Virus record (IMG/VR): IMGVR_UViG_2585427763_000002
Length of the DNA: 42,068 nucleotides
Origin: a virus
Taxonomy: Duplodnaviria; Heunggongvirae; Uroviricota; Caudoviricetes
Direction: 5' to 3' (one strand)
Below are positions 1,331 through 40,262 of the stretch, one piece after another. Numbering within the stretch: the first letter of the stretch is position 1; each line of letters begins with the position of its first letter. Made by a program: the position numbers and the translations under genes. The notes below the pieces were generated by a model. That model was not told where the DNA came from. It saw only the letters and a list, made by a program, of their open reading frames with translations, and searched no databases.

Positions 1331-1345
1331 GCTTTTTTATACTAA
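1331..1345. other. attL: attL common core (O) of lambda site-specific recombination, junction B-O-P'
   Basis: GCTTTTTTATACTAA followed by GTTGGCATTATAAAAAAGCATTGCTTATCAATTTGTTGCAACGAACAGGTCACTATCAGTCAAAATAAAATCATTATTTGATTTC, i.e. the lambda P' arm; same 15-mer repeats at 40248. Confidence 0.92.
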
Positions 1346-1418
1346 GTTGGCATTATAAAAAAGCATTGCTTATCAATTTGTTGCAACGAACAGGTCACTA
1401 TCAGTCAAAATAAAATCA

Positions 1419-2489
1419 TTATTTGATTTCAATTTTGTCCCACTCCCTGCCTCTGTCATCACGATACTGTGATGCCATGGTGTCCGACTTATGCCCGAGA
1501 AGATGTTGAGCAAACTTATCGCTTATCTGCTTCTCATAGAGTCTTGCAGACAAACTGCGCAACTCGTGAAAGGTAGGCGGATCCCCTTCGAAGGAAAGAC
1601 CTGATGCTTTTCGTGCGCGCATAAAATACCTTGATACTGTGCCGGATGAAAGCGGTTCACGACGAGTAGATGCAATTATGGTTTCTCCGCCAAGAATCTC
1701 TTTGCATTTATCAAGAGTTTCCTTCATTGATATCCCGAGAGCATCAACATGCAATGTTGTAGGGATGGCAATTTTTACACCTGTTTTGCTTTGCTCGACA
1801 TAAAGATATCCATCTACGATATCAGACCACTTCATTTCGCATAAATCACCAACTCGCTGCCCGGTAACAACAGCCAGTTCCATTGCAAGTCTGAGCCAAC
1901 ATGGTGATGATTCTGCTGCTTGATAAATTTTCAGGTATTCGTCAGCCGTAAGTCTTGATCTCCTTACCTCTGATTTTGCAGCGCGAGTGGCAGCGACCGG
2001 GTTTATTGTTATATGGCCTTCAGCTATTGCCTCTCGGAATGCATCGCTCAGTGTTGATCTGATTAACTTGGCTGACGCCGCCTTGCCCTCGTCTATGTAT
2101 CCATTGAGCATTGCCGCAATTTCTTTTGTGGTGATGTCTTCAAGTGGAACATCAGGTAGCCCCCTCCTTATTGCTTTAATTTTGCTCATGTAATTTATGA
2201 GTGTCTTCTGCTTGATTCCTCTGCTGGCGAGGATTTTTTCGTAGCGATCAAGCCATGAATGTAACGTAACAGAATTATCACTGTTGATTCTCGCTGTCAG
2301 AGGCTTGTGTTTGTGTCCTGAAAATAACTCAATGTTGGCCTGTATAGCTTCAGTGATTGCGATTCGCCTGTCTCGGCCTAATCCAAACTCTTTACCCGTC
2401 CTTGGGTCCCTGTAGCAGTAATATCCATTGTTTCTTATATAAAGGTTAGGGGGTAAATCCCGGCGCTCATGACTTCGCCTTCTTCCCAT
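1419..2489 (-). CDS. int: Tyrosine integrase, lambda Int type
   Basis: 356 aa, MGRRRSHERRDLPPNLYIRNNGYYCYRDPRTGKEF... recalled as near-identical to lambda Int; adjacent to P' arm. Confidence 0.95.
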   Translation of the reverse strand: MGRRRSHERRDLPPNLYIRNNGYYCYRDPRTGKEFGLGRDRRIAITEAIQANIELFSGHKHKPLTARINSDNSVTLHSWLDRYEKILASRGIKQKTLINYMSKIKAIRRGLPDVPLEDITTKEIAAMLNGYIDEGKAASAKLIRSTLSDAFREAIAEGHITINPVAATRAAKSEVRRSRLTADEYLKIYQAAESSPCWLRLAMELAVVTGQRVGDLCEMKWSDIVDGYLYVEQSKTGVKIAIPTTLHVDALGISMKETLDKCKEILGGETIIASTRREPLSSGTVSRYFMRARKASGLSFEGDPPTFHELRSLSARLYEKQISDKFAQHLLGHKSDTMASQYRDDRGREWDKIEIK

Positions 2490-2685
2490 TTCTGATCCTC
2501 TTCAAAAGGCTACCTGTTACTGGTCGATTTAAGTCAACCTTTACCGCTGATTCGTGGAACAGATACTCTCTTCCATCCTTAACCGGAGGAGGGAATATCC
2601 TGCATTCGCGCACCCATCGACGAACTGTTTCAAGGCTTCTTGGGCGTCGCTGGCGTGCGTTCCACTCCTGAAGTGTCAAGTACAT
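2467..2685 (-). CDS. xis: Excisionase, lambda Xis type
   Basis: 72 aa, MYLTLQEWNARQRRPRSLETVRRWVRECRIFPPP...; overlaps int start as in lambda. Confidence 0.9.
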   Translation of the reverse strand: MYLTLQEWNARQRRPRSLETVRRWVRECRIFPPPVKDGREYLFHESAVKVDLNRPVTGSLLKRIRNGKKAKS

Positions 2686-2790
2686 CGCAAAGTCTCCGCA
2701 ATTACACGCAAGAAAAGCCGCATTGATGCGGCAATGGTAGGTCTGGATATCTTGAGAAATGAACGGGCCTCATCGAGTGTGAGGCTGTGG

Positions 2791-3135
2791 TTAGTCCTTG
2801 CGTAACTCGCTAATTCTTCTGTAAGTCTCTGGTGCTTTGTTTCCGTGTATCTTCATTTCAGACTTCAACAGAGCAACGAGGGAATCCCATTCGGTGAGGA
2901 TGCCTTTGAATGCAGGAACGCGCTTTGCAACCTTGTCGAATGAATCTCTGATTTCTGGGATCTGCTCAACCAGTGCAACGCATCGTCGGAAATCGGCTGC
3001 GTCATGTGGAGCGCCGAAGTGATGACCATAGATATTCTTTTTCAGTCCACATGCGATTGAGGCAAGAGTTGCGCTACTGATGCCGACATCGCCAGTCGAT
3101 TGCCATTTCAAAACCTTCATAGCCAAATCTGACAT
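2791..3135 (-). CDS. Hypothetical early-left protein
   Basis: 114-aa ORF with GGAGA RBS; position equivalent to lambda ea genes; no family recognised. Confidence 0.55.
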   Translation of the reverse strand: MSDLAMKVLKWQSTGDVGISSATLASIACGLKKNIYGHHFGAPHDAADFRRCVALVEQIPEIRDSFDKVAKRVPAFKGILTEWDSLVALLKSEMKIHGNKAPETYRRISELRKD

Positions 3136-3235
3136 TTCTTGTCTCCATAAAACAAAACTCGCCGTAGCGAGTTCAGATAAAAGAAATACCCGCGAATGCG
3201 AGGATTGTTATTCACCTTTGACGGCAAGTTGCAGG

Positions 3236-3991
3236 TTAGCCATGGTTAACCTCCTGCGGCGGTTCTGGTAGCGGCATCCAGTGTGATGGAATCCACGACG
3301 CACCAGGAATTATCCAACCATCATTAGCGTCAGGATGTCCCGGTATGTAAGTCGCCCACTTCATTCGCCAGTCACCTTTCCCGTCAAACTCCCTGGCAAC
3401 AAGAACAGCTGTTTTGCTATCCGGCATTCGCTCACTACAGCTTATCCAACCATCCGGAGTTACCGGATAGTTGCCAGCCAGTCTACGCAACACAGCCTTA
3501 ACGGCCTCAATACGGTCATCATCAACTTTTTCTACAATATTGGAATTTAAATACTTCGAAGCCTTGCTATGCCAATCGCTGGTTTTAGGGTCTTGTCCAT
3601 CCATCAAACGCCAAGCTTCAGCGATTAACTCATAGCCAGTAACAGTGGCTTCCTGCGCATCACCAATCAGTTGTGTGATCTCTCTTTCAAGCATGCTTAG
3701 AGCGTTAGGCATTGGTTTTTCTTCCGGTACTACTGGAACGGGTGGAGCGGCGTAGACCTCAATAATTCCATTATCAATAGGCCATTCTCCATCCTTGAGG
3801 TAGTCACTTGTGCCGTCAACTTGCTGTTCTGCAATGTGGAATGCACCTATTGGTTTTGCTTCCAGCGATGCCAGAGCAATCCGTGCCAGTTCTTCCGCTT
3901 CTTCTGCTGGCAGTACAACGTTGCTACCCGGTCCGTATGTTTCGCGCCACTGCTTGATTGTCAGCAGTCGCCCTTTGGTAATAGTGATCAT
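3236..3991 (-). CDS. DUF551-domain phage protein
   Basis: 251 aa; C-terminal ...SCSERMPDS...SHWMPLPEPP typical of DUF551 proteins of lambdoid early regions; start ATGA-overlaps upstream stop. Confidence 0.65.
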   Translation of the reverse strand: MITITKGRLLTIKQWRETYGPGSNVVLPAEEAEELARIALASLEAKPIGAFHIAEQQVDGTSDYLKDGEWPIDNGIIEVYAAPPVPVVPEEKPMPNALSMLEREITQLIGDAQEATVTGYELIAEAWRLMDGQDPKTSDWHSKASKYLNSNIVEKVDDDRIEAVKAVLRRLAGNYPVTPDGWISCSERMPDSKTAVLVAREFDGKGDWRMKWATYIPGHPDANDGWIIPGASWIPSHWMPLPEPPQEVNHG

Positions 3992-4503
3992 GCCGCGTTT
4001 CCTTCTTTCTTATTAACAATCACACCGTCATATATTTCATTAAGGTGCCCTCTCAACTCCATGCGCCTTAATGCAGATAACATGTAATCGCATTCAACCT
4101 GCTTATTCCCAGTAAATGGCTTATCGTCAGGATTACCCCAACAGCAATTACCCCTGGGCCATCCATGTACTTTCCGTACTCTTCCGTTAACAACGTGAAG
4201 TAATCCCCAGCCGGGAGGTAAATCCTCAACTGAAATAATTTCCGGCTCACTAATAAAGAATCGCCAGTCGCCCATGCCAAGTGAGGGATTTTTACGGAAA
4301 CGCTTTTTTCTATCTGCCAACAAGTCAGCACGAGAACACTTCGCCTCTATCAGGCATGATGCTGAATTTCTGAATCCCATAGCATCTGGCTGTTCTCCGG
4401 TACTGGTTACAGCAACAAAGCGGTCATGAAAGCAAACCTTGAACCCGTTGCGCTTAAGGAACTTGTACGCAATCTGACAGAGTTCGTGGTGTGTTAACGC
4501 CAT
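3988..4503 (-). CDS. PD-(D/E)xK nuclease-like protein (family not identified)
   Basis: 171 aa from ATG at 4503 (TGATATG coupling to upstream gene); motif EQPDAMGF...(16 aa)...IEAKCSRADL fits PD...(D/E)xK. Confidence 0.5.
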   Translation of the reverse strand: MALTHHELCQIAYKFLKRNGFKVCFHDRFVAVTSTGEQPDAMGFRNSASCLIEAKCSRADLLADRKKRFRKNPSLGMGDWRFFISEPEIISVEDLPPGWGLLHVVNGRVRKVHGWPRGNCCWGNPDDKPFTGNKQVECDYMLSALRRMELRGHLNEIYDGVIVNKKEGNAA

Positions 4504-4504
4504 A

Positions 4505-4990
4505 TCACTCTCCTTTGATGCGAATGCCTGTTGCAATGCTGTTTATGATGCTGTCAGTGCATGGGGTAGAAAGCTGGGCATCTCCAGCAATTTTCATGAC
4601 CTCAACATCTGCATATCGAATACCGAGGTGTATCAGACCGGCTATGCCTGACTTAAGCCGAGCATTTTCCATAAATAGAACTTTTGCCCGCTGTTTTTCT
4701 GCTTCAAGCTCAACGCGCAGCTTCCCTACCGTTAGCGCAATATCCTCGTTCTCCTGATCGCGGCTTTTGATGTATTGCAGGTTTCTTTCCCGTTCATCCA
4801 GCAGTGCCAGCACGGTTTCTGGTCCGGTCAGAAATTTGAAGGCGTTGAGCGCATCAATATCCACACCGTAATCTTTAAGTTCCTGTTCACTTAACAAATC
4901 ATCATCAGCTGGCAACATTAACAGGCGTTCCATTGCTGGAATTGCACGTTCCGCCACCTCACGCAATGCCTGATAGTTAATTTGGGTCAC
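4505..4990 (-). CDS. Hypothetical protein, possibly Ead/Ea22-like
   Basis: 161-aa ORF, GTG start overlapping upstream stop (GTGA); coiled-coil-rich; family assignment from memory only. Confidence 0.5.
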   Translation of the reverse strand: MTQINYQALREVAERAIPAMERLLMLPADDDLLSEQELKDYGVDIDALNAFKFLTGPETVLALLDERERNLQYIKSRDQENEDIALTVGKLRVELEAEKQRAKVLFMENARLKSGIAGLIHLGIRYADVEVMKIAGDAQLSTPCTDSIINSIATGIRIKGE

Positions 4991-5211
4991 TCTTCATCCT
5001 CCAAGTCGGCAACGGCGTCCATCACATCAGAACCGCGAATAACCTCAAAAGCACGGCAGGCCATTTGAAATACCAGTTGCTCTTGCGGATGCGGTGATTC
5101 CCAATATTTGAATCCAGGGCGATGCGCGTACCCCATCATTGAATAAAAATCACCAGCAAGCTTAATCGCGGCATCAACAAGCTCTCTGTTAGTCATTCTT
5201 TTTCCGCTCAC
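4987..5211 (-). CDS. Hypothetical small protein
   Basis: 74-aa ORF (GTG at 5211, alternative ATG at 5196); translationally coupled within leftward operon. Confidence 0.45.
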   Translation of the reverse strand: MSGKRMTNRELVDAAIKLAGDFYSMMGYAHRPGFKYWESPHPQEQLVFQMACRAFEVIRGSDVMDAVADLEDEE

Positions 5212-5765
5212 TGGTTGCCTCCTTTGCGAAGCTGGGCGGCGATATCTTTGAGAACGCCATCAGAGAATGAGCGGTCAAAATCTCCTTCCGGCGCATTAGC
5301 CATAAACTCAGTAGAGGTAAGGATCATCCGGGCAATATCCGCGGCGTTCTTCGCAGTATCATCAATAAAACCAGCTTTCCAGGCTGCCAACATTCTGTTC
5401 GCCACAAAATAAGCGCCTTCCTTGCGTGCTTCAGTCTTCCCTTCAGCCAGAAAAGCATCGGTGGCTGGGGTTTCAGTAACATCATCTTCCCATTCGCTAA
5501 ACTCCTCACGACAAAAGTCATTAAATTCCTTCTCAGATTGCTTAAGCGAGGTATTTTCTGCAGCCATCTTCGCGCATTTAGCCTCAAGGTTATCAATCGT
5601 GATTCCAGCAGAACGACACTCCCGCAACGCCGTTTCCAGTTTTGATTCAAGTTCACCGAACTTACGGACAAGATATTCAGCGTTTGTTTCGTTAACCTTT
5701 AAATCTCGTGGTAAGCATTTACCTTTCAGAAATCCATCCATCTCAATTAGTGACATTTGTTTCAT
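5208..5765 (-). CDS. Hypothetical protein, possibly Ead/Ea22-like
   Basis: 185 aa from ATG at 5765 (RBS GGAGTGGGAAG upstream; ATGA overlap with upstream stop); acidic, coiled-coil-rich. Confidence 0.5.
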
Positions 5766-5944
5766 TTCTTCCCACTCCGCCACATCGCATTCAGATATTT
5801 GTTTTGATTTACTGAAGGAAAAGAATTTCTCTTAAGCAATTCCTCTCTCGATGGCATTGGCTTTACGCGTTGGCGAATAATCATTTCTGCCGGAAGAATG
5901 CCGGGATTGTATGCAAGTCCTCTCATGGTAAATTCCTCAGTCAT
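5762..5944 (-). CDS. Hypothetical small protein
   Basis: 60-aa ORF whose ATG overlaps stop of 5937-6233 gene. Confidence 0.35.
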
Positions 5945-6233
5945 TACTGATAGCGCCATAGCGTGAGCGGTAATTACGCAGGCGCGGGTCGATATATTCA
6001 GGGAAGTGGGTATATGTGGCTTTGCGGAATGGTCGGATTGATGTCTGGTAAATTCGCTCGCGTTCTTCTTTCTCTGCAAGCCATATACAGTGGCGAAATT
6101 CCTTTTCCTCTTTCGTTTCCTGCGGTAGAGACATTATTCGATCGTAGTTTTTTCTGAATTTATCCAGCACCTCCGATACGGAATTGCCGGAACAGCGGCG
6201 CGGGTCATCCGCACCATACAGAGGCGCTGGCAT
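5937..6233 (-). CDS. Hypothetical protein
   Basis: 98-aa ORF with GGAGA RBS (CAGGAGAAAATCATG on minus strand). Confidence 0.5.
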
Positions 6234-6246: not shown

Positions 6247-6753
6247 TTAAATTGCGTGAATAGCGTGACGAGGGAAGGGGAGAGTTACTGGTGCAAAGGG
6301 TATATCGTCGTCAAAATCCATCGGAGGTTCGTTGTGTTGTGCTGGTGATGATTGCTGCTGTGGCTTCTGTGATTGCCTGCTGGCTGCTTGTTGTTTGCTG
6401 TCGCCAATGCCGCCAAGCATTTGCATCACGCCATTAATTCCGACATGAACCTCGGTTGTGTAACGGTCTTGCCCTGACTGGTCTTTCCACTTTCTGGTTC
6501 TCAGCATTCCCTCGAAATAAATCTGATCACCTTTTTTCACATACTGCCCCACGACCTCAGCCAGTTTCCCGGATACAGCAACACGATGCCATTCAGTCAA
6601 TTCCTTTTGCTCGCCAGTATTTTTATCTCGCCATTGTTCTGAAGTGGCTATTGTCAGGTTAGCGAACGCTGTACCTGATGGTGAGTATCGAACTTCCGGG
6701 TCTTGTCCTACCCGACCAAGGATAATCACCTTATTTACGCCTCTGCTTGCCAT
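6247..6753 (-). CDS. ssb: Single-stranded DNA-binding protein (SSB)
   Basis: 168 aa; N-terminal OB-fold [44 protein letters not shown]..., Gln/Pro-rich linker and acidic C-terminal tail DFDDDIPF. Confidence 0.9.
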
Positions 6754-7461
6754 TTATGCCGCCTGTTTTAGTTCGTTAACTCTGATGTTCATTACCTGAA
6801 CGCATTTAGCCTGCGCCTCCTCGTTGCCAGCCATTAATTGCCAGTCACGCTGATAACGCTCGATGAGTTTTTTCTTGTCAGTTTCTGTTGACGCATAATC
6901 GCTGAAGTCTTTCAGGATTTGTTCGCAGTCAACCGATGGAGATTTCTGGTTGGTATTTTCTGGTGATGGTTTGTTATCTGATGCTGGGATTGCCCATCCC
7001 GGCAGCGATGGAGGGAGCCAGTAAAATCCTGTTCCATCCTTCAGTTTTGCCCTGTGCCACCCATGCTTTTTATCGAGAGATGTTTGTGCGAAACCTTCCT
7101 CAAGGTTATACAGATACCGACCGATTCCCCACTGAACGGCAGCACGCTTCATTGCACCTGAACGACCACCTTTGACAGCTTCTACCTGCGTGTTTTCAGC
7201 AGCATCCCATTTGGTTACCCATTCGGAATCAATCTTTATTGATATGCCGCATTCAACGCCGCCGTTGTTGGGAATATCGCGGTATTCATTGCGCCATCCT
7301 GCTTTGCCACAAACATCGTCAAGGCGTTTCATGATTGCCCGGTTCGTGACATAAGCCAGCACCATAGCCCACACCTTGCCATCGCGTGTTTTACCGCTTT
7401 GCTGTATTCGCCATTCGATATCTTCAGGGCAGAATGGCTCATCGAATTTGTTCAAATCCAT
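6754..7461 (-). CDS. Rad52/Sak-family single-strand annealing recombinase
   Basis: 235 aa; stop abuts ssb start; motifs recalled from phage Rad52/22 family (GKVWAMVLAYVTNRAIMKRLDDVCG). Confidence 0.7.
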   Translation of the reverse strand: MDLNKFDEPFCPEDIEWRIQQSGKTRDGKVWAMVLAYVTNRAIMKRLDDVCGKAGWRNEYRDIPNNGGVECGISIKIDSEWVTKWDAAENTQVEAVKGGRSGAMKRAAVQWGIGRYLYNLEEGFAQTSLDKKHGWHRAKLKDGTGFYWLPPSLPGWAIPASDNKPSPENTNQKSPSVDCEQILKDFSDYASTETDKKKLIERYQRDWQLMAGNEEAQAKCVQVMNIRVNELKQAA

Positions 7462-7560
7462 AATTCACCTCAGAATGGACATGGCCCAAGGAAATAACGC
7501 TGGTTTAATACTTCGACTCTGGACAAATTAAGGCATACCCGCATTCCTTCGCGGTCGCCA

Positions 7561-7719
7561 TTATGGCGATACCAGAGAGCTTTCTGCGTGTACATGCGTC
7601 TCTGTAACTTGCTCTCCTTCACTGTGGTTGCAAGTGACATGAATATCTCCTTCGTTACCGATTAATTCTTTCATCTGACGAATGAATTCTTCGTCTGACC
7701 AGTTATCTGTAAAACTCAT
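7561..7719 (-). CDS. Small protein in the kil position
   Basis: 52-aa ORF from ATG at 7719, ATGA-coupled to cIII stop; identity with Kil not verifiable. Confidence 0.35.
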   Translation of the reverse strand: MSFTDNWSDEEFIRQMKELIGNEGDIHVTCNHSEGEQVTETHVHAESSLVSP

Positions 7720-7886
7720 GGGCGGCCTTGTTGTTTCAAAATATCCCAAAGCTTTTCGAGCAAACTTTTCATTCTTGGTTGTTTAAAGTCTGCTCCGGTT
7801 AAAATATTTTTTCGTGAATGCTGTACCGATAAAATCGGGTTGAAAGGGCGAACCGATGCCGCCCCTGCAATAGCGAACTGTTGCAT
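7716..7886 (-). CDS. cIII: CIII-like protease inhibitor
   Basis: 56 aa, MQQFAIAGAASVRPFNPILSVQ...LLEKLWDILKQ resembles lambda CIII (MQYAIAG...) and sits two genes left of N. Confidence 0.65.
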   Translation of the reverse strand: MQQFAIAGAASVRPFNPILSVQHSRKNILTGADFKQPRMKSLLEKLWDILKQQGRP

Positions 7887-8105
7887 AGGATGCTCCTTCT
7901 GTTTGATTGCATAACGAAAACGCCTCGAGTGAAGCGTTATTGGTATGCATATAAAAAGGCCCTCACACTGGAGGGCAAAGAAGATTTCCAATAATCAGAA
8001 CAAGTCGGCTCCTGTTTAGTTACGAGCGACATTGCTCCGTGTATTCACTCGTTGGAATGAATACACAGTGCTTATTCGTCATGCATTTCAGGTATTTCTT
8101 CGTAT

Positions 8106-8261
8106 TCAACACCCCACATGTTTGTTACCCAGGATAGTTTTTTCGTACCGTTGACAAGATTCAGACCACATAAACTGACTTCCATGCGGGCGAGTTTCGA
8201 TATCTGTTATCTCTCCCGGCCGAACAAAACTGGTATTCGACTTCGTTATTTTTACTTTCAT
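8106..8261 (-). CDS. Small hypothetical ORF
   Basis: 51-aa ORF (MKVKITKSNTSFVRPGEITD...) whose ATG overlaps stop of the 8261-8518 gene (TAATG); below ORF-track size cutoff. Confidence 0.3.
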   Translation of the reverse strand: MKVKITKSNTSFVRPGEITDIETRPHGSQFMWSESCQRYEKTILGNKHVGC

Positions 8262-8518
8262 TACTCATCCCCAAGAGCTTTGCTGATTGCTGACTGTGCT
8301 TTCGATACTTCATCAGGATAATGGTCATTCCAGCTTTGCTTGTATGCCTTGTTTAGCATCGCTTGCAGAGCTTCAAGCAAATCAGGAGCTGCCTCCATCA
8401 ATCTCAAATCACCACGATGTATGGTTGTATCGTCAAACGTGACATAAACACCATCATCGTTGAATCCAGTGCCAACAACACTCCACGGCCTTTTCATTCT
8501 TTCTACGGTCATATTCAC
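8261..8518 (-). CDS. Hypothetical protein
   Basis: 85-aa ORF with RBS GAGGTGA 5 nt upstream. Confidence 0.5.
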   Translation of the reverse strand: MNMTVERMKRPWSVVGTGFNDDGVYVTFDDTTIHRGDLRLMEAAPDLLEALQAMLNKAYKQSWNDHYPDEVSKAQSAISKALGDE

Positions 8519-8564
8519 CTCTGTTGTTTATGCCAAAAATAAAGGCCGACTATGCGGCCTGAAA

Positions 8565-8987
8565 TTAATTAACCAATGATGCTGCATATTCAATTAGGAA
8601 TAACTTAGGTGCAAGCCAAATCTTCAACCATTCGAAATTGAAGGCAATAATTAAAACGCCAATAATTGAGCCAAATATAGGAGCAAATACAGTGCATATA
8701 TCGTAATAAAACGAAGATATAAAATATCCATCATTTGGACATCCATCGAAAGACGTCCATCTCTCGCCATTATTTCTTGCCGTTCTTGCAAAACTAGGAA
8801 GTTTCATTGCTGCAATTAAAAGCAACAACCCAGTCACTTGGAAAAGTGCGCTATGGACAAAACTCCATATTAGCAACTGACGAACAACATCAGGAATCTG
8901 TGACTGGCTAAATGAAACAGCCGCATCTATTCCATTACTGGCTTTTTGCAGTAGTTCTACGAGAATCTTGTTCGCTTGTTCTTCCAT
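8565..8987 (-). CDS. Membrane protein in the sieB position (candidate superinfection-exclusion protein)
   Basis: 140 aa with several hydrophobic helices; located between N and cIII where lambda/P22 carry sieB; RBS GAGGTGA. Confidence 0.5.
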   Translation of the reverse strand: MEEQANKILVELLQKASNGIDAAVSFSQSQIPDVVRQLLIWSFVHSALFQVTGLLLLIAAMKLPSFARTARNNGERWTSFDGCPNDGYFISSFYYDICTVFAPIFGSIIGVLIIAFNFEWLKIWLAPKLFLIEYAASLVN

Positions 8988-8995
8988 ATATCACC

Positions 8996-9322
8996 TCAAA
9001 TAAGTGGTTTGCTGCCTAATTTCATTTTCTGGCGACCAACACATGTCACACCCATTTCACTGCGTGGCTTGCTGTACCATGTGCGCTGATTCTTGCGCTC
9101 AATACGCTGCAGGTTGCTTTCAATCTGTTCGTGGTATTCAGCCAGCACCGTAAGGTCTATCGGATTCAGTGCGCTTTCTACTCGTGATTTCGGTTTGCGA
9201 TTCAGCGAGAGAATAGGGCGGTTAACTGGTTTTGCGCTTACCCCAACCAACAGGGGATTTGCTGCTTTCCATTGAGCCTGTTTCTCTGCGCGACGTTCGC
9301 GGCGGCGTGTTTGTGCATCCAT
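8996..9322 (-). CDS. N: Antitermination protein N, lambda type
   Basis: MDAQTRRRERRAEKQAQWKAANPLLVGVSAKPVNRPILSLNRKPKSRVESALNPIDLTVLAEYH... recalled as lambda N, including the arginine-rich boxB-binding motif. Confidence 0.9.
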   Translation of the reverse strand: MDAQTRRRERRAEKQAQWKAANPLLVGVSAKPVNRPILSLNRKPKSRVESALNPIDLTVLAEYHEQIESNLQRIERKNQRTWYSKPRSEMGVTCVGRQKMKLGSKPLI

Positions 9323-9494: not shown

Positions 9495-9525
9495 GCCCTT
9501 CTTCAGGGCTTAATTTTTAAGAGCG
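9495..9525 (-). promoter_or_regulatory. nutL: nutL (boxB GCCCTGAAGAAGGGC and boxA CGCTCTTA on the minus strand)
   Basis: Exact lambda nutL boxB/boxA sequences read on the reverse complement, upstream of N. Confidence 0.85.
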
Positions 9526-10378: not shown

Positions 10379-10489
10379 ATCCTTATTATTACGCTCTGTA
10401 CTAAAACCATCCATGCACAAGATGTATTTTTTGTTTGCATTCCAAAAGTACATATCGTATTATTGTTTCATGGTTACTATGGAGGGCAT
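10379..10489. promoter_or_regulatory. OR operator region with divergent pRM/pR promoters
   Basis: 111-bp AT-rich divergent interval between cI and cro starts; operator half-sites not confidently resolved. Confidence 0.55.
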
Positions 10490-31990: not shown

Positions 31991-34158
31991 TGGCTAAAGC
32001 ATGGAAAGATGTTATCGCTTCTCCACAGTATCAGGCGTTAACTGAAGAACAGAAAGCACAGGCTCAAGCGCAATATTTTGATGAGGTTGTTGCCCCTAAG
32101 GCTGGTGACAAATGGGCTGAAGCAAGAGATCAGTTTTATGCAGCATACCCTCCACCTCAGCAGCAGAAAGAAGAACCATCATTGATGCAACAAGCTGGTG
32201 ATTGGCTCACAGGTGGTCAAAGTGCAGGGCAAATTGCAGAACAGGCTGGTCGTGGTCTGGTAAACATACCATTTGACGTATTGCAGGGTGGCGCAAGTCT
32301 GATTAATGCAATCAGCCAGGGGCTTGGTGGCCCAAAGGTTTTGGATGATGTCTATCGTCCAGTCGATCGACCGACAGACCCTTATGCGCAAGCCGGTGAA
32401 ACAATTGGTGGGTATCTCCTGCCAATTGGCACAGCGGCAAAAGCTGCTGGAGCGCCAGCAAAGCTCGCTGGAGATATCGGTTCCGCAGGAAACATGATTG
32501 CAGGTTCTCTTGCTGATGCTGCAAATCAGGAGGGCGACTTTGCACAAAATGCTGCCATTAACGGTGGTATCAATATTGGTGCTCAGGGGATACTTTCTGG
32601 GGCTGGAAGGATCTTAACCTCTAAATCACCTCAAGTTCTTGGTGGCGGGGCAATAAATTCCGCTGCTGATGTTTCGAAAATGGCAAAGTCTGGTACAGGA
32701 AGAGAGATTATTGCCAGACAGTCAGCTAATGTGTCAGACGAAATAGCAAAAGCAGCAGATACTGCTGGAATAGATATCAACGCATTAACTCCTGGCATGA
32801 GATCAGGTAGTCGTGGTCTTGCTCAGGCGGAGGGGATTCTGGCGTCAAAGCCCGGAATTACACAGGATGCACACACCAAAGCATTCAGTGAAATAGAGTC
32901 GAAATTTAACTCAGCATTGGATGAGTTTGGGGCTGAAGCAGGAACTGCATCAGAAAAAAGTGCAGCCATAAAACAAAGGGTTTTGGCAAGTATTGATAAA
33001 ATGAAAAATTCAGAAAAGGCTGCATGGGATAGCGTCCGCTCCACGATGCCTGACGCAAAGGCCAGAATGTCAAACCTGAATGCTACAATTCAGGGTGATA
33101 TTTTGGCTGGCATGCCGCTAACTCCTGAGATGAAACAATTCGCATCTGCTTATGCTAAAACTGGTAAAAAAGGAATCACGTTTGATGCCATGAAGGCATG
33201 GCGAAGTAAACTTGCTGACGCAGAGCAGAAGTATATAAGGTCTGGTGAGGCAAATACGGCAAGGCGCATGGCGGAGCTTCGTGATGCAGCAACGGAAGAT
33301 ATGCGCATAATGGCTCAAAATGGCGGTTTTCTTGATGACTGGCAAAAAGCTAATGATCTGTCAAAGGCAAGATTTACAGCACAAGAACAGGCTGAAGCAG
33401 CGTTTGGTAGAGACCTTGCAACTGATCAGTTGGTAACTAATGGATCTAAGGCGTTACAGGGTTCAGCAAAAAGTGGAACAGGTCAGTTCCATAAAATAAT
33501 AAGCGCCCTACCTGAGTCGGAACGCGCGCCAGCAATTGCATCAATATTACAAGATGCAATGTCGCAAGGGGTACGCGGAGGTAAGTCTGAAGAGGCTGGA
33601 ATTAAGCATATCGCGACTATTCTTACCCCACAAAACGTGAAGGCAATTAGTCGATATTCTCCAGAACTTGGCAGGATTACAAGTTCATACGGAGAACTTG
33701 CACGAGCAGCAACAAAGCCACTTCGATATATTGAACAGACAGGGCGATCTATGCCAGCCATTAGCACTCTTGAGAATGGCCTTCATCCAGTTTTAGAGAG
33801 CGCATTGTCTGGCGCTTTTAGAACTACTGGCACTATCGCAGGGTTCTCTGGAGGAGGCGTTATTGGAGCAATAGCGGGTGGCGCTGCAGGTGGGGCAATT
33901 GATGCAATGGCAAAAGGAGCGATAGCGAAATTATCCGCAACTAGAAGCGGTCGTTACGCTATTGAAAAGGCTGTTCAAGAGGCAACAAAGGCAGTTAAGG
34001 TTGGGGCAAGTGATGGTGCATTAGCGGCGGCGGAACGCAGATTTATGGCAAATAAGGCCGCCGTAAAAGCAATACGCGAGGCACTAGGAAACGAAGAGTT
34101 CCAGCGTTTAGCAAGAGCTGGAATTGTGGCATCGCTAAGCGGAATGGCACAGGAGTAA
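31990..34158 (+). CDS. Ejection protein, P22 gp16-like
   Basis: 722 aa, Ala/Gly-rich; last gene of rightward virion operon before the accessory island. Confidence 0.65.
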
Positions 34159-34488
34159 TTAGTCATCCATGGATGGATTGAGCTTATCTCGTGTTGATGT
34201 GGCAATTTTCCCAACATTTTTCAACCAAGATTTTAAGAAGGATATGTCGTCCTTAATATCATGAATATCCTCATTCTTTATACGATCAACCTTATCCTCT
34301 AAGCTCTCTATAGAACGCTCAATGCTAGACAGAGAGATTTTTAAGTCCCCTTGCTCACGTTCCAGTGAGGATTTGAGAGCACAATATTCGTTTTCTAGAA
34401 TTCCTATTTTTTTTGTTAGAGAGTGCATTCGATACTCATACACCAAACCAGAAACGACTAATGCAGCCAACAGAAACCATTCAAGCAC
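34159..34488 (-). CDS. Small membrane-anchored coiled-coil protein (accessory; function unknown)
   Basis: 109 aa; N-terminal TM helix MLEWFLLAALVVSGLVYEY then heptad-like charged repeats; divergent from Panacea-like gene across AT-rich promoter region. Confidence 0.5.
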   Translation of the reverse strand: MLEWFLLAALVVSGLVYEYRMHSLTKKIGILENEYCALKSSLEREQGDLKISLSSIERSIESLEDKVDRIKNEDIHDIKDDISFLKSWLKNVGKIATSTRDKLNPSMDD

Positions 34489-34856
34489 ACCAACCTCCTT
34501 AGTTTTGCTCAGGATACCAGATGATACTTTATTGGTGGAGTGGTGTGTGAAAACGTGTCAACGACAAACCATCCACAACTTGGACGAATGATTTAGCAAA
34601 AAGTGCTATTTTTGGTGTTTGGTGTCATAGAAAAGTGAATAGCTCACTTTTCAACATTGCATGAAACTTGCAGGAAATGTGACATTACCTTATAGGTAAC
34701 TTCGGCGAAAATGCAGTAAATGTGAAACGTAATGGTTTAAACATGTCGCTAAAGTGGTTGTAAGTTAGCCTCCGAAGGATTGCTGATAGCTTTGTTATAG
34801 TATTAAATGACATTTGACATAGTTGGATACTTAGCTGTGGCTATCAAGATGGAGGT

Positions 34857-35306
34857 GTGTTCATGCTTACTTGTTTTGATGTCGCCGACTACTTCCTGTC
34901 GCGGTGTGACGAGGATAGCGGTGACGCAATCTCTAATTTAAAATTACAAAAGCTTGTTTACTATGCTCAGGGTTTTTCATTGGCGTTGCTTGGCGAGCCT
35001 CTTTTTCAGAATAAGATGGAAGCTTGGATGCATGGCCCTGTTGTCCCTGAGCTTTATCACCGTTATAAACAATATGGTAATGGTGCTATCCCTTCTCCAG
35101 AGTCTTTTGATGCTGAAAAATTCAGCGAAGAACAGTTAGAGCTATTAGAAGAAGTCTGGGATGTTTTTGGGCAATTTTCTGCCTGGAAACTGAGGAACAT
35201 GACACACGAAGAGTCACCATGGAGATCAAACTATATTGAGGGTGTTGGTGGTTCTGAAATTAGTTCTAAGGAGATGGCAGAGTACTTTGCAACTCGGATT
35301 AACTAA
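34857..35306 (+). CDS. Panacea (DUF4065; SocA/GepA-type) domain protein, candidate antitoxin
   Basis: 149 aa; ISNLKLQKLVYYAQGFSLALLGEPLFQNKMEAWMHGPVVPELY matches the Panacea consensus as recalled. Confidence 0.6.
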   Translation: MFMLTCFDVADYFLSRCDEDSGDAISNLKLQKLVYYAQGFSLALLGEPLFQNKMEAWMHGPVVPELYHRYKQYGNGAIPSPESFDAEKFSEEQLELLEEVWDVFGQFSAWKLRNMTHEESPWRSNYIEGVGGSEISSKEMAEYFATRIN

Positions 35307-35310
35307 CGAG

Positions 35311-35730
35311 ATGGCAAGAAAATCTAAAAGGATTATCCCCCCTGCTGAATCTACAGGTAAGTTAAAGTTAGGGCCGCAGTCAGGGGGGAATTCAGATCAA
35401 AAGAAACCGAAATTTTCATTCTGTTACATCCAAAGCTCTCACTGCATAACGAAATGCCAAAAAGATGAGAAAGCTGGCTTAGCTGATAAATTATACAGAT
35501 TAAGTCAACTAACATGGGCAGATATTAAGCAGCAAGGTAGGCATAAGCTTGGATTTGAGAAGATTGCAAGGGGTGCAATTAAAGCAGGTATCCCCAGTCA
35601 TATAACGGAAGACGTAGATCATTTCTTGGCTTTTAGATTTGATGATTTGAAAGCCATGGTTGGTTATCGTCTTGGATCGACATTTTTTGTTATATGGCTT
35701 GATAGAGAGTTCAACCTATACAAGCACTAA
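35311..35730 (+). CDS. Unknown protein coupled to Panacea-like gene (candidate toxin/effector)
   Basis: 139 aa from ATG 35311, 4 nt after upstream stop; basic N-terminus; no recognised family. Confidence 0.5.
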   Translation: MARKSKRIIPPAESTGKLKLGPQSGGNSDQKKPKFSFCYIQSSHCITKCQKDEKAGLADKLYRLSQLTWADIKQQGRHKLGFEKIARGAIKAGIPSHITEDVDHFLAFRFDDLKAMVGYRLGSTFFVIWLDREFNLYKH

Positions 35731-35731
35731 T

Positions 35732-35757
35732 AAAACCCCCCGTCAGGTGGGTTTTTT
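35732..35757. terminator. Putative bidirectional terminator between convergent genes
   Basis: AAAACCC-(10 nt loop)-GGGTTTT with T-run, between 35730 (+ gene end) and 35743 (- gene end). Confidence 0.4.
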
Positions 35758-35994
35758 GTACAAATCCTTCAGCGTATCAAACACCATCTTCCTAACAAGT
35801 TCGGACTGCTCATCAGCGATGCGTTCTGCATCGTCTCGATAGCCTGCAATTGGTGATGGTTTTGATAGCGCATCCTGAACGATTTGTAATAACTCTGAGT
35901 TCATTGACCTTCCGTTAGCCTCTGCTCTTAATTTCAATTTTTCTCTTACTTCCAAAGGCATACGGAAGTTAAAGTGCGGATCGTCTCTAGCCAT
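35743..35994 (-). CDS. mnt: Mnt repressor (Arc/MetJ ribbon-helix-helix), P22 immI type
   Basis: 83 aa, MARDDPHFNFRMPLEVREKLKLRAEANGRSMNSELLQIVQDALSKPSP... recalled as near-identical to P22 Mnt. Confidence 0.8.
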   Translation of the reverse strand: MARDDPHFNFRMPLEVREKLKLRAEANGRSMNSELLQIVQDALSKPSPIAGYRDDAERIADEQSELVRKMVFDTLKDLYKKPT

Positions 35995-36017
35995 GCCATC
36001 ACTCCAAGTTAGTATCT

Positions 36018-36281
36018 CTAACTTTCGTCTTTATTGTTGCTATACATGCATTTCAACTTCTCAACATCATGTTCAAGATCTATCAATCGTGATGCTATAG
36101 TTGCAAGGTCTAGTGCTTGAATGTGTTTATTTTTTTCGGTCCATGCTTCAAGTGCCGCGACCATCTCAGCATTTAATGAACGAGAATTAGCCTCAGCCAG
36201 TTCAATAAGACGTTCCTTTATCTCTACAGGAAGCCTCAGATTCACTTGAGGGTTTTTGTACTTACGATCAGACATCGGCAC
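36018..36281 (-). CDS. Second ribbon-helix-helix (Arc/Mnt-like) protein
   Basis: 87 aa; PQVNLRLPVEIKERLIELAEANSRSLNAEMVAALEA RHH signature plus C-terminal extension. Confidence 0.6.
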   Translation of the reverse strand: MPMSDRKYKNPQVNLRLPVEIKERLIELAEANSRSLNAEMVAALEAWTEKNKHIQALDLATIASRLIDLEHDVEKLKCMYSNNKDES

Positions 36282-36380
36282 ATCCTGAATAATTTTTTAC
36301 CACAGGATATGTAGGTATCTATTGACTATCAATGCGTACCTAAATACTATGTATGCGTACCACATACAACGGAGGATGCA
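36282..36380. promoter_or_regulatory. Divergent immI-like promoter/operator region
   Basis: AT-rich interval with direct repeats ATGCGTACC (x2) between leftward RHH genes and rightward arc-like gene. Confidence 0.45.
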
Positions 36381-36521
36381 ATGAAGGTAAAAACACTGCG
36401 TATGCCAGAGAAGTTAGAAAAAATCCTTGAAGAGAAAGCAAAGGAAGAGTGTCGCTCATTTAGTGCAGAAGTAATTAAACGGGTGATGGACAGCCTGAAG
36501 AGAGAGGGGATAACGGTATGA
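36381..36521 (+). CDS. Arc-like ribbon-helix-helix repressor
   Basis: 46-aa ORF (MKVKTLRMPEKLEKILEEKAKEECRSFSAEVIKRVMDSLKREGITV) after GGAGGA; below ORF-track cutoff. Confidence 0.5.
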   Translation: MKVKTLRMPEKLEKILEEKAKEECRSFSAEVIKRVMDSLKREGITV

Positions 36522-36721
36522 GTAAAGAATGTTGTTTCTGCGGCATTAGCGAATCAGACGCTGATCAAACATACATTTACTCTAAAGAAACAGGTCGGAT
36601 GCTGTGTAGTGACTGCGTGTTGGACATCATAAGATACAAGCATCTTGGATGTTCTGCCAGCATTAGCAATATAGGTGAAGTATATGAAGGGAAAGATATA
36701 ACTGATAGAGCAGAAAGTTGA
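36518..36721 (+). CDS. Small zinc-ribbon-like protein
   Basis: 67 aa with CxxC...CxxC pattern (CCFCG ... CSDC); ATGA-coupled to arc-like stop. Confidence 0.45.
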   Translation: MSKECCFCGISESDADQTYIYSKETGRMLCSDCVLDIIRYKHLGCSASISNIGEVYEGKDITDRAES

Positions 36722-36784
36722 AGCCCCAACTGCGGTAACAGTCAGGGCTTCGGTATCGTAAAACCACGCATAGGAATTAACGAC

Positions 36785-37708
36785 ATGAAAAGTATAGCAA
36801 CAGCAGTATCTACTATCAATGTACCATTCCACGGCGCAGAGCTTTATGTTGTCAATCACAACGGTGAGCCGTACACCCCAATGAAACCTATCGTTGAGGG
36901 AATGGGTATGGATTGGGCTTCACAGTTTACAAAGTTAAAACAAAGATTTGCTAAAGGTATTGTGGAAATCGCAATACCTTCAGTTGGCGGTGTGCAGAAC
37001 ATGATTTGCCTTGCTTTACGTAAACTTAATGGCTGGTTGCAAACCATCAGTCCTAACAAAGTCCGCCCTGAAATCCGCGACAATGTAATCCAGTATCAAG
37101 AAGAGTGTGACGATGTGCTATACGAGTACTGGACTAAAGGCCATGTAGTTAACCCACGCAAAGCTAAAAAGGCGTTGCCGGGTAAAATCACCACTGAGCA
37201 GCAGGAAGCCATTAAACAACTCGTCATGAGTCGCGGTCAGTCTCTGCCAAAAGAAAAACAGGCTAAGGCGATGATCACCATGTGGTCGTCACTGAAATCC
37301 CATTTTGGATGTTCGTACAAAGAAATCAGTGAGGAGCAGTTTACCGAAGCACTATCGCTTGCAGCTCGAGTTCCACTTGAAGGTGAGTTCATTGGCAAAC
37401 AAGAGAAGAAAACCAACGAGCTTTCTGCAAAAGAAGCAAACAGCCTTGTATGGCTATGGGATTATGCCAACCGCTCACAGGCATTATTCCGCGAATTGTA
37501 TCCGGCGCTAAAACAAATTCAATCGAACTATTCAGGCAGATGCTACGACTACGGTCATGAGTTCTCGTATGTTATCGGAATGGCGAGAGATGTTTTAATT
37601 AATCACACACGAGATGTTGATATCAATGAGCCAGACGGACCAACGAATCTTTCTGCATGGATAAGACTTAAGAACAAAGAATTACCTCCTTCAGTACATA
37701 ACTACTGA
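36785..37708 (+). CDS. ant: Antirepressor (Ant-like)
   Basis: 307 aa downstream of arc-like gene as in P22 immI; followed by strong terminator. Confidence 0.65.
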   Translation: MKSIATAVSTINVPFHGAELYVVNHNGEPYTPMKPIVEGMGMDWASQFTKLKQRFAKGIVEIAIPSVGGVQNMICLALRKLNGWLQTISPNKVRPEIRDNVIQYQEECDDVLYEYWTKGHVVNPRKAKKALPGKITTEQQEAIKQLVMSRGQSLPKEKQAKAMITMWSSLKSHFGCSYKEISEEQFTEALSLAARVPLEGEFIGKQEKKTNELSAKEANSLVWLWDYANRSQALFRELYPALKQIQSNYSGRCYDYGHEFSYVIGMARDVLINHTRDVDINEPDGPTNLSAWIRLKNKELPPSVHNY

Positions 37709-37727
37709 CAGATAAACAACGCAACGA

Positions 37728-37750
37728 CCCAGCTTCGGCTGGGTTTTTTT
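37728..37750 (+). terminator. Rho-independent terminator after ant
   Basis: CCCAGC-TTCG-GCTGGG followed by TTTTTTT. Confidence 0.7.
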
Positions 37751-37808
37751 ATGCCCAAAATTCACCGTAGCCCCGCTGCGGAGATTCCTTGTATCTGGAG
37801 CAAATTAA

Positions 37809-39881
37809 ATGACAGACATTACAGCCAATGTTGTAGTGAGTATGCCTTCGCAACTCTTCACTATGGCGCGTTCTTTTAAAGCCGTAGCCAATGGCAAAAT
37901 TTATATCGGTAAAATTGACACTGACCCGGTAAATCCTGAAAACCAGATTCAGGTTTATGTGGAGAACGAAGATGGTTCTCACGTTCCTGTTGCACAGCCA
38001 ATCATCATTAACGCTGCTGGTTACCCGGTATATAACGGACAGATTGCCAAGTTCGTAACTGTGCAAGGCCATTCTATGGCTGTTTATGATGCATACGGTG
38101 TGCAGCAGTTCTATTTTCCTAATGTGCTGAAGTATGACCCGGATCAGTTGCGACAGCAATTATTAAACCCTGACACTGGCCTAGGAGATGCGCTTGTTAT
38201 TGTTAAACAGCCATATGCTGGTTCTGTACCTATTACTCAACATCAGCACAACACCTATCTCCTTACCCCTTACCACTTCGCAGCAAAGGGAGATGGTATT
38301 ACAGATGACACTCTTGCCCTAAACCGCTGGTCCAATTGCGGAGCTAAGGTACTCTATTGGCCAGCAGGAAAATATCTGGTGAGCCCTACAAATGGTGTTT
38401 CTCTGGATATGGATAACTACCATACAGGGGATTCCGCACTAACGGCGTGCGTAACCGTTCCCTATGGCGTGAAAATTTATACGGCTGGGACAGAAACCCA
38501 GTTATGCGTGAAGGATGCTGACTCAGCATCGACCGTAGGTCTGGCCGTTAGCTACCCGGAGTCAAGTTATTCCCAGGGAGAAACCGACATCGGAAAATTC
38601 ATGATTCGCCTGGAAAACGGAAATGGTCGGTACGGTATTCTTACTCCACTCAGGGGGGAAATGTTCACTGCGCACCGGGCGAAGTTCAAATTAGGAGCGC
38701 ATTTCGGTCCTCAACAGGGGCGTGATGACCTGACGGTGCTACAGTATTCGTGGGTAAATGGCATGCTGATTGGCGACGCTTTTAGCGGCTCAGTGCATGT
38801 CACTGGATACGGCAGCTATAACGTACAGCAGGTTGAAGGTACGCAATTCCAGTGCGTGGCCGTTAAGATGAAGTCCGTTCGAGGTAACGTAGGTGTAGAC
38901 ATCAGATTCAACACAAACAACTGGTGGAAGTTTGTCGAACTGAGTGACGGCGTTGAAGGGTTTGTTGTCAAGGACAGCGAAGGGCTTGGGGCATTTGTTG
39001 GAATCGACCTAACCAACCCAGCCAGCGAGCCAGGTGGATTTATCGATAACGTACACGTCAACGTTAAGCAAAACGGAGTACGAGCCAGAAACAGGCCATC
39101 CCTGCAAATCGGAAACATTGAAGTCTATAAAAGTGATGGATTTGCCACTGACCTTGTTTACGATGCGGTGCTTCTGGTTGACTGCCAGGAAGTGACTATC
39201 AACTCTATTCACGCAATCGTCGGCAACTCAATCACAAATGCTCAGTCAGTAGTTAACTCGACAAACAGCACATTCCGCCTGAACTCATACTTTGCGCAAA
39301 ACATCAGGTTCGTCGATTTTGTGGTTAATAGCCCTGACTGCTATGTCGGAGAGGGGACAATTAACCAGGTCGAGGCAGTTCACTCACTTTCTGGATCACA
39401 AAGCAACGACTTCCACGGTAGTGATGTTCTGGTTAGATCCTACAGAAACAACGTTCGCCCACTTTACGCAGTGATGGATTCCGCTTTCAACAGGGCAAGG
39501 GCGAGGTTTCCACAAAATACAAGCCTCCAGGTGAGAACCTTTCTCGACTACACTGTGGCAGCAGCTGGGACTTTAACAATAGAACCAAGGCTTGACCCAT
39601 CCAGGTACTACATCATCATGAGTGCTGGTACAGGTGCCTTCACCTATTCAATTGAGCTGGATAAAGTGTCTGCCGTAGTTGGTGATATTGTTTACATAAA
39701 GATAGCCGGGTCATCATCTGCTAACCCAACAGTTTTGGTTAAAAATGGTATTGGTGGGACAACGCTCAGCACATTCAATAATATCGGTCCGATTCGTTTG
39801 AATTGTGCTTACAGATTTAATGAGTCAGGTAACTGGGTGGCCTACTACATTACCCAAAGCGTTGAAACCACTTATGGCTAA
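37809..39881 (+). CDS. Tailspike protein (P22 gp9-type head-binding domain with a different receptor-binding domain)
   Basis: 690 aa; N-terminus [59 protein letters not shown]... recalled from P22 tailspike; remainder diverges. Confidence 0.85.
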
Positions 39882-40247
39882 TAGTCATTATCAATATCCT
39901 GCAGATGTGACCTAACGACAAGCGTCGCCACGATGACAACCACGGAAAGGATGCCGATAACCCACCACATAACTTACCCGCGCAAAATGAATGGACAAAA
40001 ATCATCCGCAGATTAACCCTAAGCTTTGCATATTTTTTGAAGATGTGACTGTTGTGTGGCAAAAAATTAGCGCAAGAGGACAAAAAATCACCTTGCGCTA
40101 ATGCTCTGTTACAGGTCACTAATACCATCTAAGTGGTTGATTCATAGTGACTGGATATGTTGTGTTTTGTAGCATTATGTAGTCTATTTTTTAGACTACA
40201 GATGCTGTAACACATTGATATTAATGGTTTTTAATGTTTCACGTTCA

Positions 40248-40262
40248 GCTTTTTTATACTAA
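40248..40262. other. attR: attR common core (O), junction P-O-B'
   Basis: GCTTTTTTATACTAA preceded by lambda P-arm-like sequence (CTGTTACAGGTCACTAATACCATCTAAGT...) and followed by CTTGAGCG (B'). Confidence 0.9.

Follow-up and report, generated by a model that had tools for sequence, protein, structure and literature searches.

A P22-like podovirus prophage with a lambda-type integration module at the lambda attachment site between ybhC and ybhB

We analyzed a stretch of viral DNA of 42,068 nucleotides (IMG/VR record IMGVR_UViG_2585427763_000002; referred to below as the window), in which positions 1331-40262 form a prophage, the element studied here. This element is very probably a complete and probably inducible temperate podovirus, a P22-like lambdoid phage (Lederbergvirus, Sf6/HK620 capsid subtype) which carries int, xis and attP of the lambda/HK97 type and was integrated by its Int protein at the 15-bp attB-lambda core between ybhC and ybhB of E. 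coli. The assignment is based on sequence identities, gene order, intact reading frames, the att structure and the restoration of the empty chromosomal site. All positions are given in the numbering of the whole window, and all coverage figures for the element were computed on 1331-40262. Genes were annotated from six-frame open reading frames (ORFs) by tblastn against eight annotated reference phages and by searches of Pfam, PHROGs, PADLOC, PDB sequences and Rfam.

Attachment sites and excision in silico

The exact 15-bp lambda core GCTTTTTTATACTAA was present in two copies in the window, at 1331-1345 and 40248-40262, against a chance expectation of 0. On the left, the 3' part of ybhC precedes the B arm, and on the right lie the B' arm and ybhB. 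The att features were as follows.

1331-1345, no strand: attL common core (B-O-P'), exact lambda 15-bp core; the rightward sequence is collinear with the P' arm of lambda and HK97
40057-40247, no strand: sib-like hairpin region and P arm of attP, collinear with attP of lambda, HK97 and Huey; predicted hairpin ttagcgcaag to cttgcgctaa
40248-40262, no strand: attR common core (P-O-B'), exact lambda core, followed by sequence identical to that of the empty site in E. coli Nissle 1917

When 1346-40262 (38,917 bp) was removed in silico, the remaining 3151 bp aligned with the unoccupied ybhC|ybhB site in E. coli Nissle 1917 with 0 gaps and 4 mismatches (99.87% identity), a comparison so clean that the element would be well suited as a positive control in tests of prophage-boundary callers. 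At 38,917 bp, the unit is close in length to HK620 (38,297 bp) and Sf6 (39,043 bp). Rebuilding attP from the P arm of attR, the core and the P' arm of attL gave a sequence collinear with lambda attP (91.4% over 326 bp) and with those of HK97 (96.3%) and Huey (95.1%), and the sib-like hairpin upstream of the P arm was conserved. The two cores, the exact restoration of the empty site and the collinear attP therefore indicate that the element entered attB-lambda by site-specific recombination of the lambda type. The sequence features of a lambda-type recombination module were present, namely Int and Xis of lambda specificity, an identical core at both junctions and a position between ybhC (gal side) and ybhB/bioA. 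The preliminary description of this DNA, made from the letters alone, had suggested a podovirus integrating at attB-lambda, and this was borne out, as genes of the P22/Sf6 type are bounded by the lambda cores and the empty site is restored in silico.

Segments identical to lambda cluster at both ends of the element and in the immunity region, so that one might suspect the remnant of a lambda-like element (att, int, xis, N, cI) in tandem with a separate P22-like prophage. However, the only two att cores bound the whole element, the window holds no second integrase, repressor, replication module or terminase, and the P arm and sib follow the tailspike as they do in the circular genome of Huey. 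We consider a tandem arrangement extremely unlikely.

Continuity of the assembly

Near-identical lambdoid segments can mislead short-read assemblers, and the left half of the window is matched in a median of 3 places per E. coli genome, which would leave room for a chimera in which the end of a lambda-like prophage was misjoined to a P22-like prophage over shared lambdoid sequence. Against this, excision in silico gives the exact empty site, each functional module is present only once, and the same architecture is found in closed genomes and in an isolated phage (see below). The same sequence also recurs in GCA_000711525.1, whose contig JONF01000083.1 is 100% identical over 27809-42068 and 99.98% identical over 1138-21984. 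For the right arm, with its junction from the tailspike through attR to ybhB, two Logan run assemblies and one ENA metagenome assembly gave matches of at least 99.98% identity (1-2 mismatches). Because the empty site is restored without gaps and the sequence, or its right arm, is found again in independent assemblies, the element is not an assembly artefact, and a chimeric assembly, by which the preliminary description might have failed, is highly improbable.

Virion genes and packaging mode

The genes from the terminase to the tailspike are of the P22/Sf6 type, in agreement with the preliminary description, which had listed a 708-aa (amino acid) portal, a 423-aa coat, gp4/gp10/gp26 and ejection proteins; all of these were found at full length with identities of 91-100%.

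19493-20035, plus strand: Rha-family regulator, 100% identical to that of vB_EcoP-720R6 (720R6); Phage_pRha and ORF11CD3 domains
20508-20948, plus strand: terminase small subunit, phrog_309, 100% identical to that of 720R6
20945-22357, plus strand: terminase large subunit of the pac/headful type, 100% identical to Sf6 TerL; Terminase_3
22360-26667, plus strand: portal (708 aa), scaffold (294 aa) and coat (423 aa) of the Sf6/HK620 subtype, 99% identical to those of Sf6, HK620 and 611R6
26710-34158, plus strand: hkbT-like gene, gp4, gp10, gp26 tail needle, gp14 and the ejection proteins gp7, gp20 and gp16, 91-100% identical to HK620 and/or vB_EcoP-611R6 (611R6), all full length

The portal starts with the ATG at 22360. 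The nucleotide sequence matches HK620 at 96% identity over 20860-34519 and 611R6 at 97% over 20162-34541. The complete virion cluster of Lederbergvirus (terS, terL, portal, scaffold, coat, gp4, gp10, gp26, gp14, gp7, gp20, gp16 and then the tailspike) is thus present in order and at full length.

A search of the window for a cos site returned only matches with 2 mismatches, which is the chance level. Neither nucleotide nor protein sequences matched lambda coordinates 1-22,000, that is, the lambda head, tail and b-region genes, and the element does not qualify as a Lambdavirus. From the TerL protein 100% identical to that of Sf6 and the absence of cos, we infer a headful mode of packaging. The tailspike had been described as abutting the lambda P arm with no cos site or lambda tail genes in between; the absence of cos and of lambda tail genes was confirmed, whereas the two features do not abut, about 175 bp lying between the tailspike stop (39881) and the start of the P-arm/sib homology (40057).

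Comparison with described phages

No single described phage matched the whole element. The best reference, 611R6, covered 51.4% of it, followed by HK620 (48.4%), Gally (44.1%), Huey (42.4%), 720R6 (42.2%), Sf6 (41.7%), P22 (21.4%), HK97 (17.3%) and lambda (11.5%, none of it in virion genes), and eight references combined covered 76.1%. No single phage record or complete E. coli genome covering at least 80% of either half was found. Since the best single-reference coverage is only 51.4%, the proposal that the element is a mosaic stands.

Its likeness to each relative is confined to particular modules. The Lederbergvirus prophage 720R6 (ON470605) shares the P22-like gene order, int (99%), xis (100%), a lambda core by ybhB and bioA, the same immunity (CI 99%, cro 96%), and the TerS and Rha proteins, but it belongs to another capsid subtype (portal 56%, scaffold 32%, no coat match), has a primase/helicase in place of the DnaC-like loader and S and R lysis genes of the lambda type, carries tRNA-Asn and tRNA-Thr after Q, and has a different tailspike and no ant gene. 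HK620 and Sf6 are close from TerL to gp16 (96-97% at the nucleotide level, proteins 91-100%), both have the head-binding domain, and Sf6 has a Q of the phage 21 type; however, they differ in their IntS/CPS-53-type integrase, attP core, lambda S/R-type lysis genes, immunity, replication proteins and tailspike receptor domains, and in HK620 mnt and ant have been reduced to remnants. Huey (PQ850609), isolated on K-12 with a restored O16 antigen, has the exact lambda core, an attP 95% identical, and Int, Xis, N, SSB and Erf-type proteins at 99%, whereas its capsid subtype, its O16-targeting tailspike, its DnaB-type helicase and its lambda-type lysis genes are different and it has no immI ant module.

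Lambda itself shares the attP core and arms, Int, Xis, N, nutL, nutR, the C-terminal domain of CI, the N-terminus of O and the gal-bio integration site; cos and the head, tail and b-region genes are found only in lambda, and Q, the lysis cassette, the DNA-binding domain of CI, Cro and P differ. P22 shares the overall gene order, mnt (90%), the sar RNA, ant (57%), gp10, gp14 and gp7 (86-93%) and the head-binding domain (77%), but there is no detectable coat match, the portal is 32% identical, and P22 has its own integrase and attP core, the gtrABC conversion genes and another lysis cassette.

The prophage 611R6 (ON470589) is integrated at argW and has a CPS-53-type integrase. It contains a segment of about 140 bp (about 40880-41240) that is 93% identical to 40057-40193 of the window and is placed downstream of its tailspike and O-acetylase. 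This sib/P-arm-like segment appears to be left over from a past exchange of integration modules.

Precedents at the lambda site

P22-like phages are a branch of the lambdoid phages in which the virion genes are conserved and the early regions are mosaic and shared with lambda, HK97, 21 and others. A lambdoid early region joined to a P22-like virion module defines the P22-like group, and in epsilon34, for example, Q is 98% identical to lambda Q and the C-terminal domain of the repressor is about 80% identical to that of lambda CI (PMC2629481). A P22-like virion combined with lambda Int at attB-lambda is likewise a known and common arrangement, already present in public records, and the preliminary description over-valued its novelty. 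The prophage 720R6 carries int/xis of the lambda type and the core, and its sequence ends in ybhB and bioA; P22-like prophages occupy the site in several complete E. coli genomes, such as the closed genome NZ_CP182365, in which a full one lies between ybhC and ybhB and is bounded by two cores; and Huey is a plaque-forming Lederbergvirus from sewage with a lambda core. Moreover, ybhC, an integrase and a PBSX-type terminase lay in one collinear place of about 22-25 kb in 11 of the 15 top complete-genome matches, and another draft genome (our locus L021) had the same O/DnaC module, a lambda-type Int adjoining ybhC, and a P22 portal.

Gally, a prophage of strain LF82 with an Int of the lambda family, was found to form podovirus particles, to excise, to package by headful from a pac site within terS and to carry out lateral transduction, its pac-type podovirus nature having been shown by sequencing and EM (PMC9928086). 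We considered it as a precedent for attB-lambda and rejected it: its att primers are lambda-like, but it is integrated between torS and torT (an HK022-type site) and has no lambda core. As it lies outside attB-lambda, Gally is a precedent for the type of phage (an active P22-like phage with a lambda-family Int) and not for the site. Judged by its modules, the element is a new combination of known parts within Lederbergvirus phages with a lambda integration module. It is one further example of modular exchange among lambdoid phages and changes little.

Integration, early and regulatory genes

The leftward arm contained the following genes.

1419-2489, minus strand: int, lambda-type tyrosine integrase, 356 aa, 351/356 residues identical to lambda Int; 99% identical to Int of HK97, Huey and 720R6
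2467-2685, minus strand: xis, excisionase, 72 aa, 71/72 residues identical to lambda Xis
2791-6233, minus strand: early-left accessory genes (DUF551/EaA-like, Ea22-like, EaE-like, DUF2737, abc2 anti-RecBCD), from tblastn against the reference phages, Pfam (DUF551, Ead_Ea22) and PHROGs
6247-6753, minus strand: SSB, 99% identical to that of Huey; Pfam SSB
6754-7461, minus strand: Erf/Rad52-type single-strand annealing protein, 99% identical to those of Huey and Sf6
7470-8987, minus strand: small early-left genes (Sf6 gp29/30-like, kil/cIII region, Y8K6-like, Sf6 gp34-like), from tblastn, PHROGs and gene calls on the identical contig
8996-9322, minus strand: N antiterminator of lambda specificity, 108 aa, 97/106 residues identical to lambda N, with an identical arginine-rich N-terminus
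9495-9525, minus strand: nutL, with boxA CGCTCTTAAAAATTAA (read directly in the sequence) and boxB GCCCTGAAGAAGGGC (exact lambda boxB)

The immunity, replication and nin regions and Q followed.

9719-10414, minus strand: cI repressor, with its own helix-turn-helix (HTH) N-terminal domain (HTH_3) and a lambda-type RecA-cleavable C-terminal domain (Peptidase_S24)
10490-10705, plus strand: cro, 71 aa, 96% identical to cro of 720R6; HTH_3
10713-10745, plus strand: nutR, with boxA CGCTCTTA (read directly in the sequence) and boxB GCCCTGAAAAAGGGC (exact lambda nutR boxB)
10822-11103, plus strand: cII-like activator, 49-57% identical to lambdoid CII/C1 proteins; Phage_CII
11138-11983, plus strand: O-type replication initiator, PF04492 at 5e-36, N-terminus about 58% identical to lambda O (residues 1-115)
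11986-12879, plus strand: DnaC-like helicase loader (IstB_IS21 AAA+), PF01695 at 1e-18, phrog_50, also called on the identical contig
12876-16917, plus strand: ren-like gene and nin region (DUF7301, NinB, Dam methylase, NinE, NinX, NinF, Roi, YbcO, RusA, NinH), from tblastn and Pfam
16914-17402, plus strand: Q antiterminator of the phage 21/Sf6 type, 162 aa, PF06530, 84-85% identical to Q of Sf6 and 720R6 and unrelated to lambda Q

All the parts of a lambdoid early region were thus found (N/nut, cI-cro-cII, an O-type initiator, a nin region and Q). The lambda-like character ascribed earlier to Int, Xis, N, nutL/nutR, the C-terminal domain of CI and the N-terminus of O held throughout, from Int and Xis with few differing residues and the exact boxB sequences down to the more distant N-terminus of O. 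CI is a natural hybrid, in which a C-terminal domain about 99% identical to that of lambda CI is joined to a DNA-binding N-terminal domain unrelated to that of lambda; overall it is 99% identical to CI of 720R6, the DNA-binding domain included. Inside the O-type gene, three tandem copies of a 24-bp repeat (11515-11586) form iterons.

The Dam-type N6-adenine methyltransferase of the nin region (14127-14657, plus strand; PF05869 at 4e-66) is 94-95% identical to homologous sequences of Sf6 and HK97, and the HK97 copy is annotated as a DNA methyltransferase.

Lysis genes

The lysis cassette is of the signal-anchor-release (SAR) endolysin type, as had been proposed from the sequence.

17942-18145, plus strand: class II holin of the HP1 family, 67 aa, PF16080 at 4e-21
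18117-18620, plus strand: SAR endolysin (GH24 lysozyme), matching RrrD (4zpu) at E = 4e-106 and 3hde at E = 3e-105
18709-19146, plus strand: Rz spanin with Rz1 embedded in the +1 frame (within the 18878-19093 ORF); Rz and Rz1 94-95% identical to those of Sf6, HK97 and Huey

The endolysin is about 95% identical over its full length, including the N-terminal membrane segment, to RrrD and to 3hde, which we take to be the phage 21 endolysin. Its residues 10-30 are rich in Ala, Gly and Ser and weakly hydrophobic (maximum hydropathy 2.09), and the lysozyme fits the published criteria for SAR endolysins, which were set out together with the SAR/pinholin concept (PMC9239132). The embedded Rz1 frame carries the lipobox VVSAC. 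In comparison with the lysis cassette of phage 21/DLP12 (R21/RrrD), the endolysin is alike, whereas the holin belongs to the HP1 family instead. The holin may act as a pinholin, a role that we infer with caution because it falls in the HP1 and not in the S21 pinholin family.

Integrity of the element

The element has one copy each of int, xis, cI, cro, the O and loader pair, Q, the lysis set and the virion set, all at full length with respect to the reference genes. Several observations weigh against a complete and functional phage read in this way. The holin is of the HP1 family, and its score against PF04971 (P21 holin S) was 19.5 bits with a cut-off of 26; the start codon of cI is uncertain; and the tailspike-attR junction also lies inside a deleted remnant of about 18 kb in 16 porcine enterotoxigenic E. 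coli (ETEC) genomes, from which it follows that the lineage decays in place.

The element might instead be cryptic or defective, looking complete while a point defect or an incompatibility between modules blocks the formation of infectious particles. Related copies at the same site are clearly decayed, Q is 10 codons shorter than in Sf6 and 720R6 (162 versus 172 aa), a tRNA scan of the window found none, whereas tRNA-Asn and tRNA-Thr genes follow Q in both Sf6 and 720R6, and the pairing of this holin with this endolysin is a presumed one. On the other hand, the essential genes have no frameshift or truncation relative to the reference phages, and a 162-aa Q was also called in two other prophages (L021 and L022). 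The independent assemblies of the right arm are nearly identical (1-2 differences), and this near-identity suggests a recent and probably mobile element. We therefore regard a cryptic prophage as improbable, if less so than a chimera or a tandem, and retain the reading of a complete temperate podovirus.

An example of the decayed relatives is the P22-like prophage at attB-lambda in E. coli K_EC180 (NZ_CP062203; locus L009, 2128-19855). In the ETEC remnant, the tailspike, ant, arc, the Panacea gene and parts of gp16 and gp20 are retained and are followed directly by a truncated N, RecT, xis and int.

The immI region and the tailspike

Between gp16 and the P arm lie a cargo segment, an immI region and the tailspike.

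34159-34488, minus strand: hkcB-like gene, cargo between gp16 and immI
34857-35306, plus strand: Panacea-domain (Panacea/SocA) protein, PF13274 at 8e-25
35311-35730, plus strand: 139-aa partner of the Panacea protein, phrog_8366
35743-35994, minus strand: mnt, 83 aa, 90% identical to P22 Mnt
36018-36281, minus strand: second ribbon-helix-helix gene, mnt-like, 87 aa; Arc domain
36381-36521, plus strand: arc-like ribbon-helix-helix gene, 46 aa
36518-36721, plus strand: gene for a 67-aa CxxC...CxxC protein between arc and sar, phrog_7150
36716-36783, minus strand: sar antisense RNA, RF00262 at 85.7 bits
36785-37708, plus strand: ant, P22_AR_N and P22_AR_C domains
37809-39881, plus strand: tailspike, 690 aa, with a P22 head-binding domain (PF09008 at 9e-67, residues 1-113) and a receptor-binding domain

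Promoter-like sites were found at the positions known from P22, as overlapping divergent sites at 36304-36350 and a sar site at 36791-36819, and an Rfam scan of the window returned only sar. All the components of the P22 immI region (mnt, arc, ant, sar and overlapping divergent promoter-like sites) are thus present, with the second mnt-like gene and the 67-aa CxxC gene as extras. The mnt/arc/ant region had been described as P22-like, which agrees with the mnt gene, the arc-like gene and the ant domains but has to be amended in one point, as there are two leftward mnt-like genes in tandem.

The head-binding domain of the tailspike is of the P22 type, as expected from the preliminary description. 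Matches to PDB sequences are confined to residues 1-249, where they correspond to the N-termini of the P22 and Sf6 tailspikes, and the likeness to Sf6 ends at about residue 249. For the receptor-binding domain (residues 251-690; 38559-39881), a single match of 26.5%, to a metagenomic contig, was found among 50,697 phage records, and this domain is the only module of the element without a close relative in any phage record. The tailspike-attR-ybhB segment occurs at 97.8% identity in 16 complete porcine ETEC genomes, O139:H1 strains among them, and the exact tailspike protein was found on 17 contigs. The receptor-binding domain is undescribed and is also carried by edema-disease/ETEC strains of pigs. 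Tentatively, and with slightly less than even confidence, we propose from these matches that residues ~251-690 form a glycan-recognition or depolymerase module carried by no sequenced phage, that the prophage is its intact mobile carrier, and that the module may define a new O-antigen specificity. This specificity might be O139, because this tailspike is also present in the porcine ETEC O139:H1 genomes.

Proposed life cycle

In the prophage state, CI, with its own operator specificity and its RecA-cleavable C-terminal domain of the lambda type, would keep pL and pR off, and the immI module (mnt, arc, sar and ant) would form a second, antirepressor-based layer of control. Upon SOS induction, N of lambda specificity would act on nutL and nutR so that the early terminators are read through; the O-type initiator, together with the iterons and the DnaC-like loader, would then replicate the DNA, and Q of the phage 21/Sf6 type would switch on the late operon. 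The Sf6-type terminase is predicted to package headfuls from a pac site into a T=7 P22-like capsid that would bear the tail needle, the ejection proteins and a glycan-specific tailspike, and lysis would be brought about by the class II holin, the SAR endolysin and the Rz/Rz1 spanins.

Packaging from terS would run rightward through attR, so that ybhB, bio and uvrB would be transduced laterally if excision were late or inefficient. Such transduction is seen for P22 and Gally (PMC8575938, PMC9928086), and by analogy it may be expected of a pac-type prophage at the lambda site, on the bio-uvrB side of the chromosome.

Additional genes in and near the element

The Panacea gene and its 139-aa partner were also called as a pair on independent contigs. 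A PADLOC scan of ten unannotated proteins gave as its sole result NsnC for the 139-aa partner, a weak match (E = 4e-6) that is insufficient to name a toxin. The pair is a candidate PanA-PanT toxin-antitoxin system or defence cargo. The Panacea segment also matches Salmonella phage Emek (98.7%) and phiv205-1.

Outside the element, between ybhB and bioA, a gene for a TnpB/InsQ RNA-guided endonuclease of the IS200/IS605 type (40938-42068, plus strand; domains HTH_OrfB_IS605, OrfB_IS605 and Cas12f1-like_TNB) runs off the end of the window. It has matches in 388 of 5426 complete E. coli genomes, with 333 E. coli records at 99% identity or more; it occupies the same position in Nissle 1917 and is absent from the compared ETEC and Br_54 genomes.

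Finally, an ORF of 30 codons (39878-39970, minus strand) encodes a strongly hydrophobic peptide. It is located in the 175 bp between the tailspike and the sib/P-arm homology, directly adjoining the tailspike stop, and could be a gene for a small membrane protein or a chance ORF.

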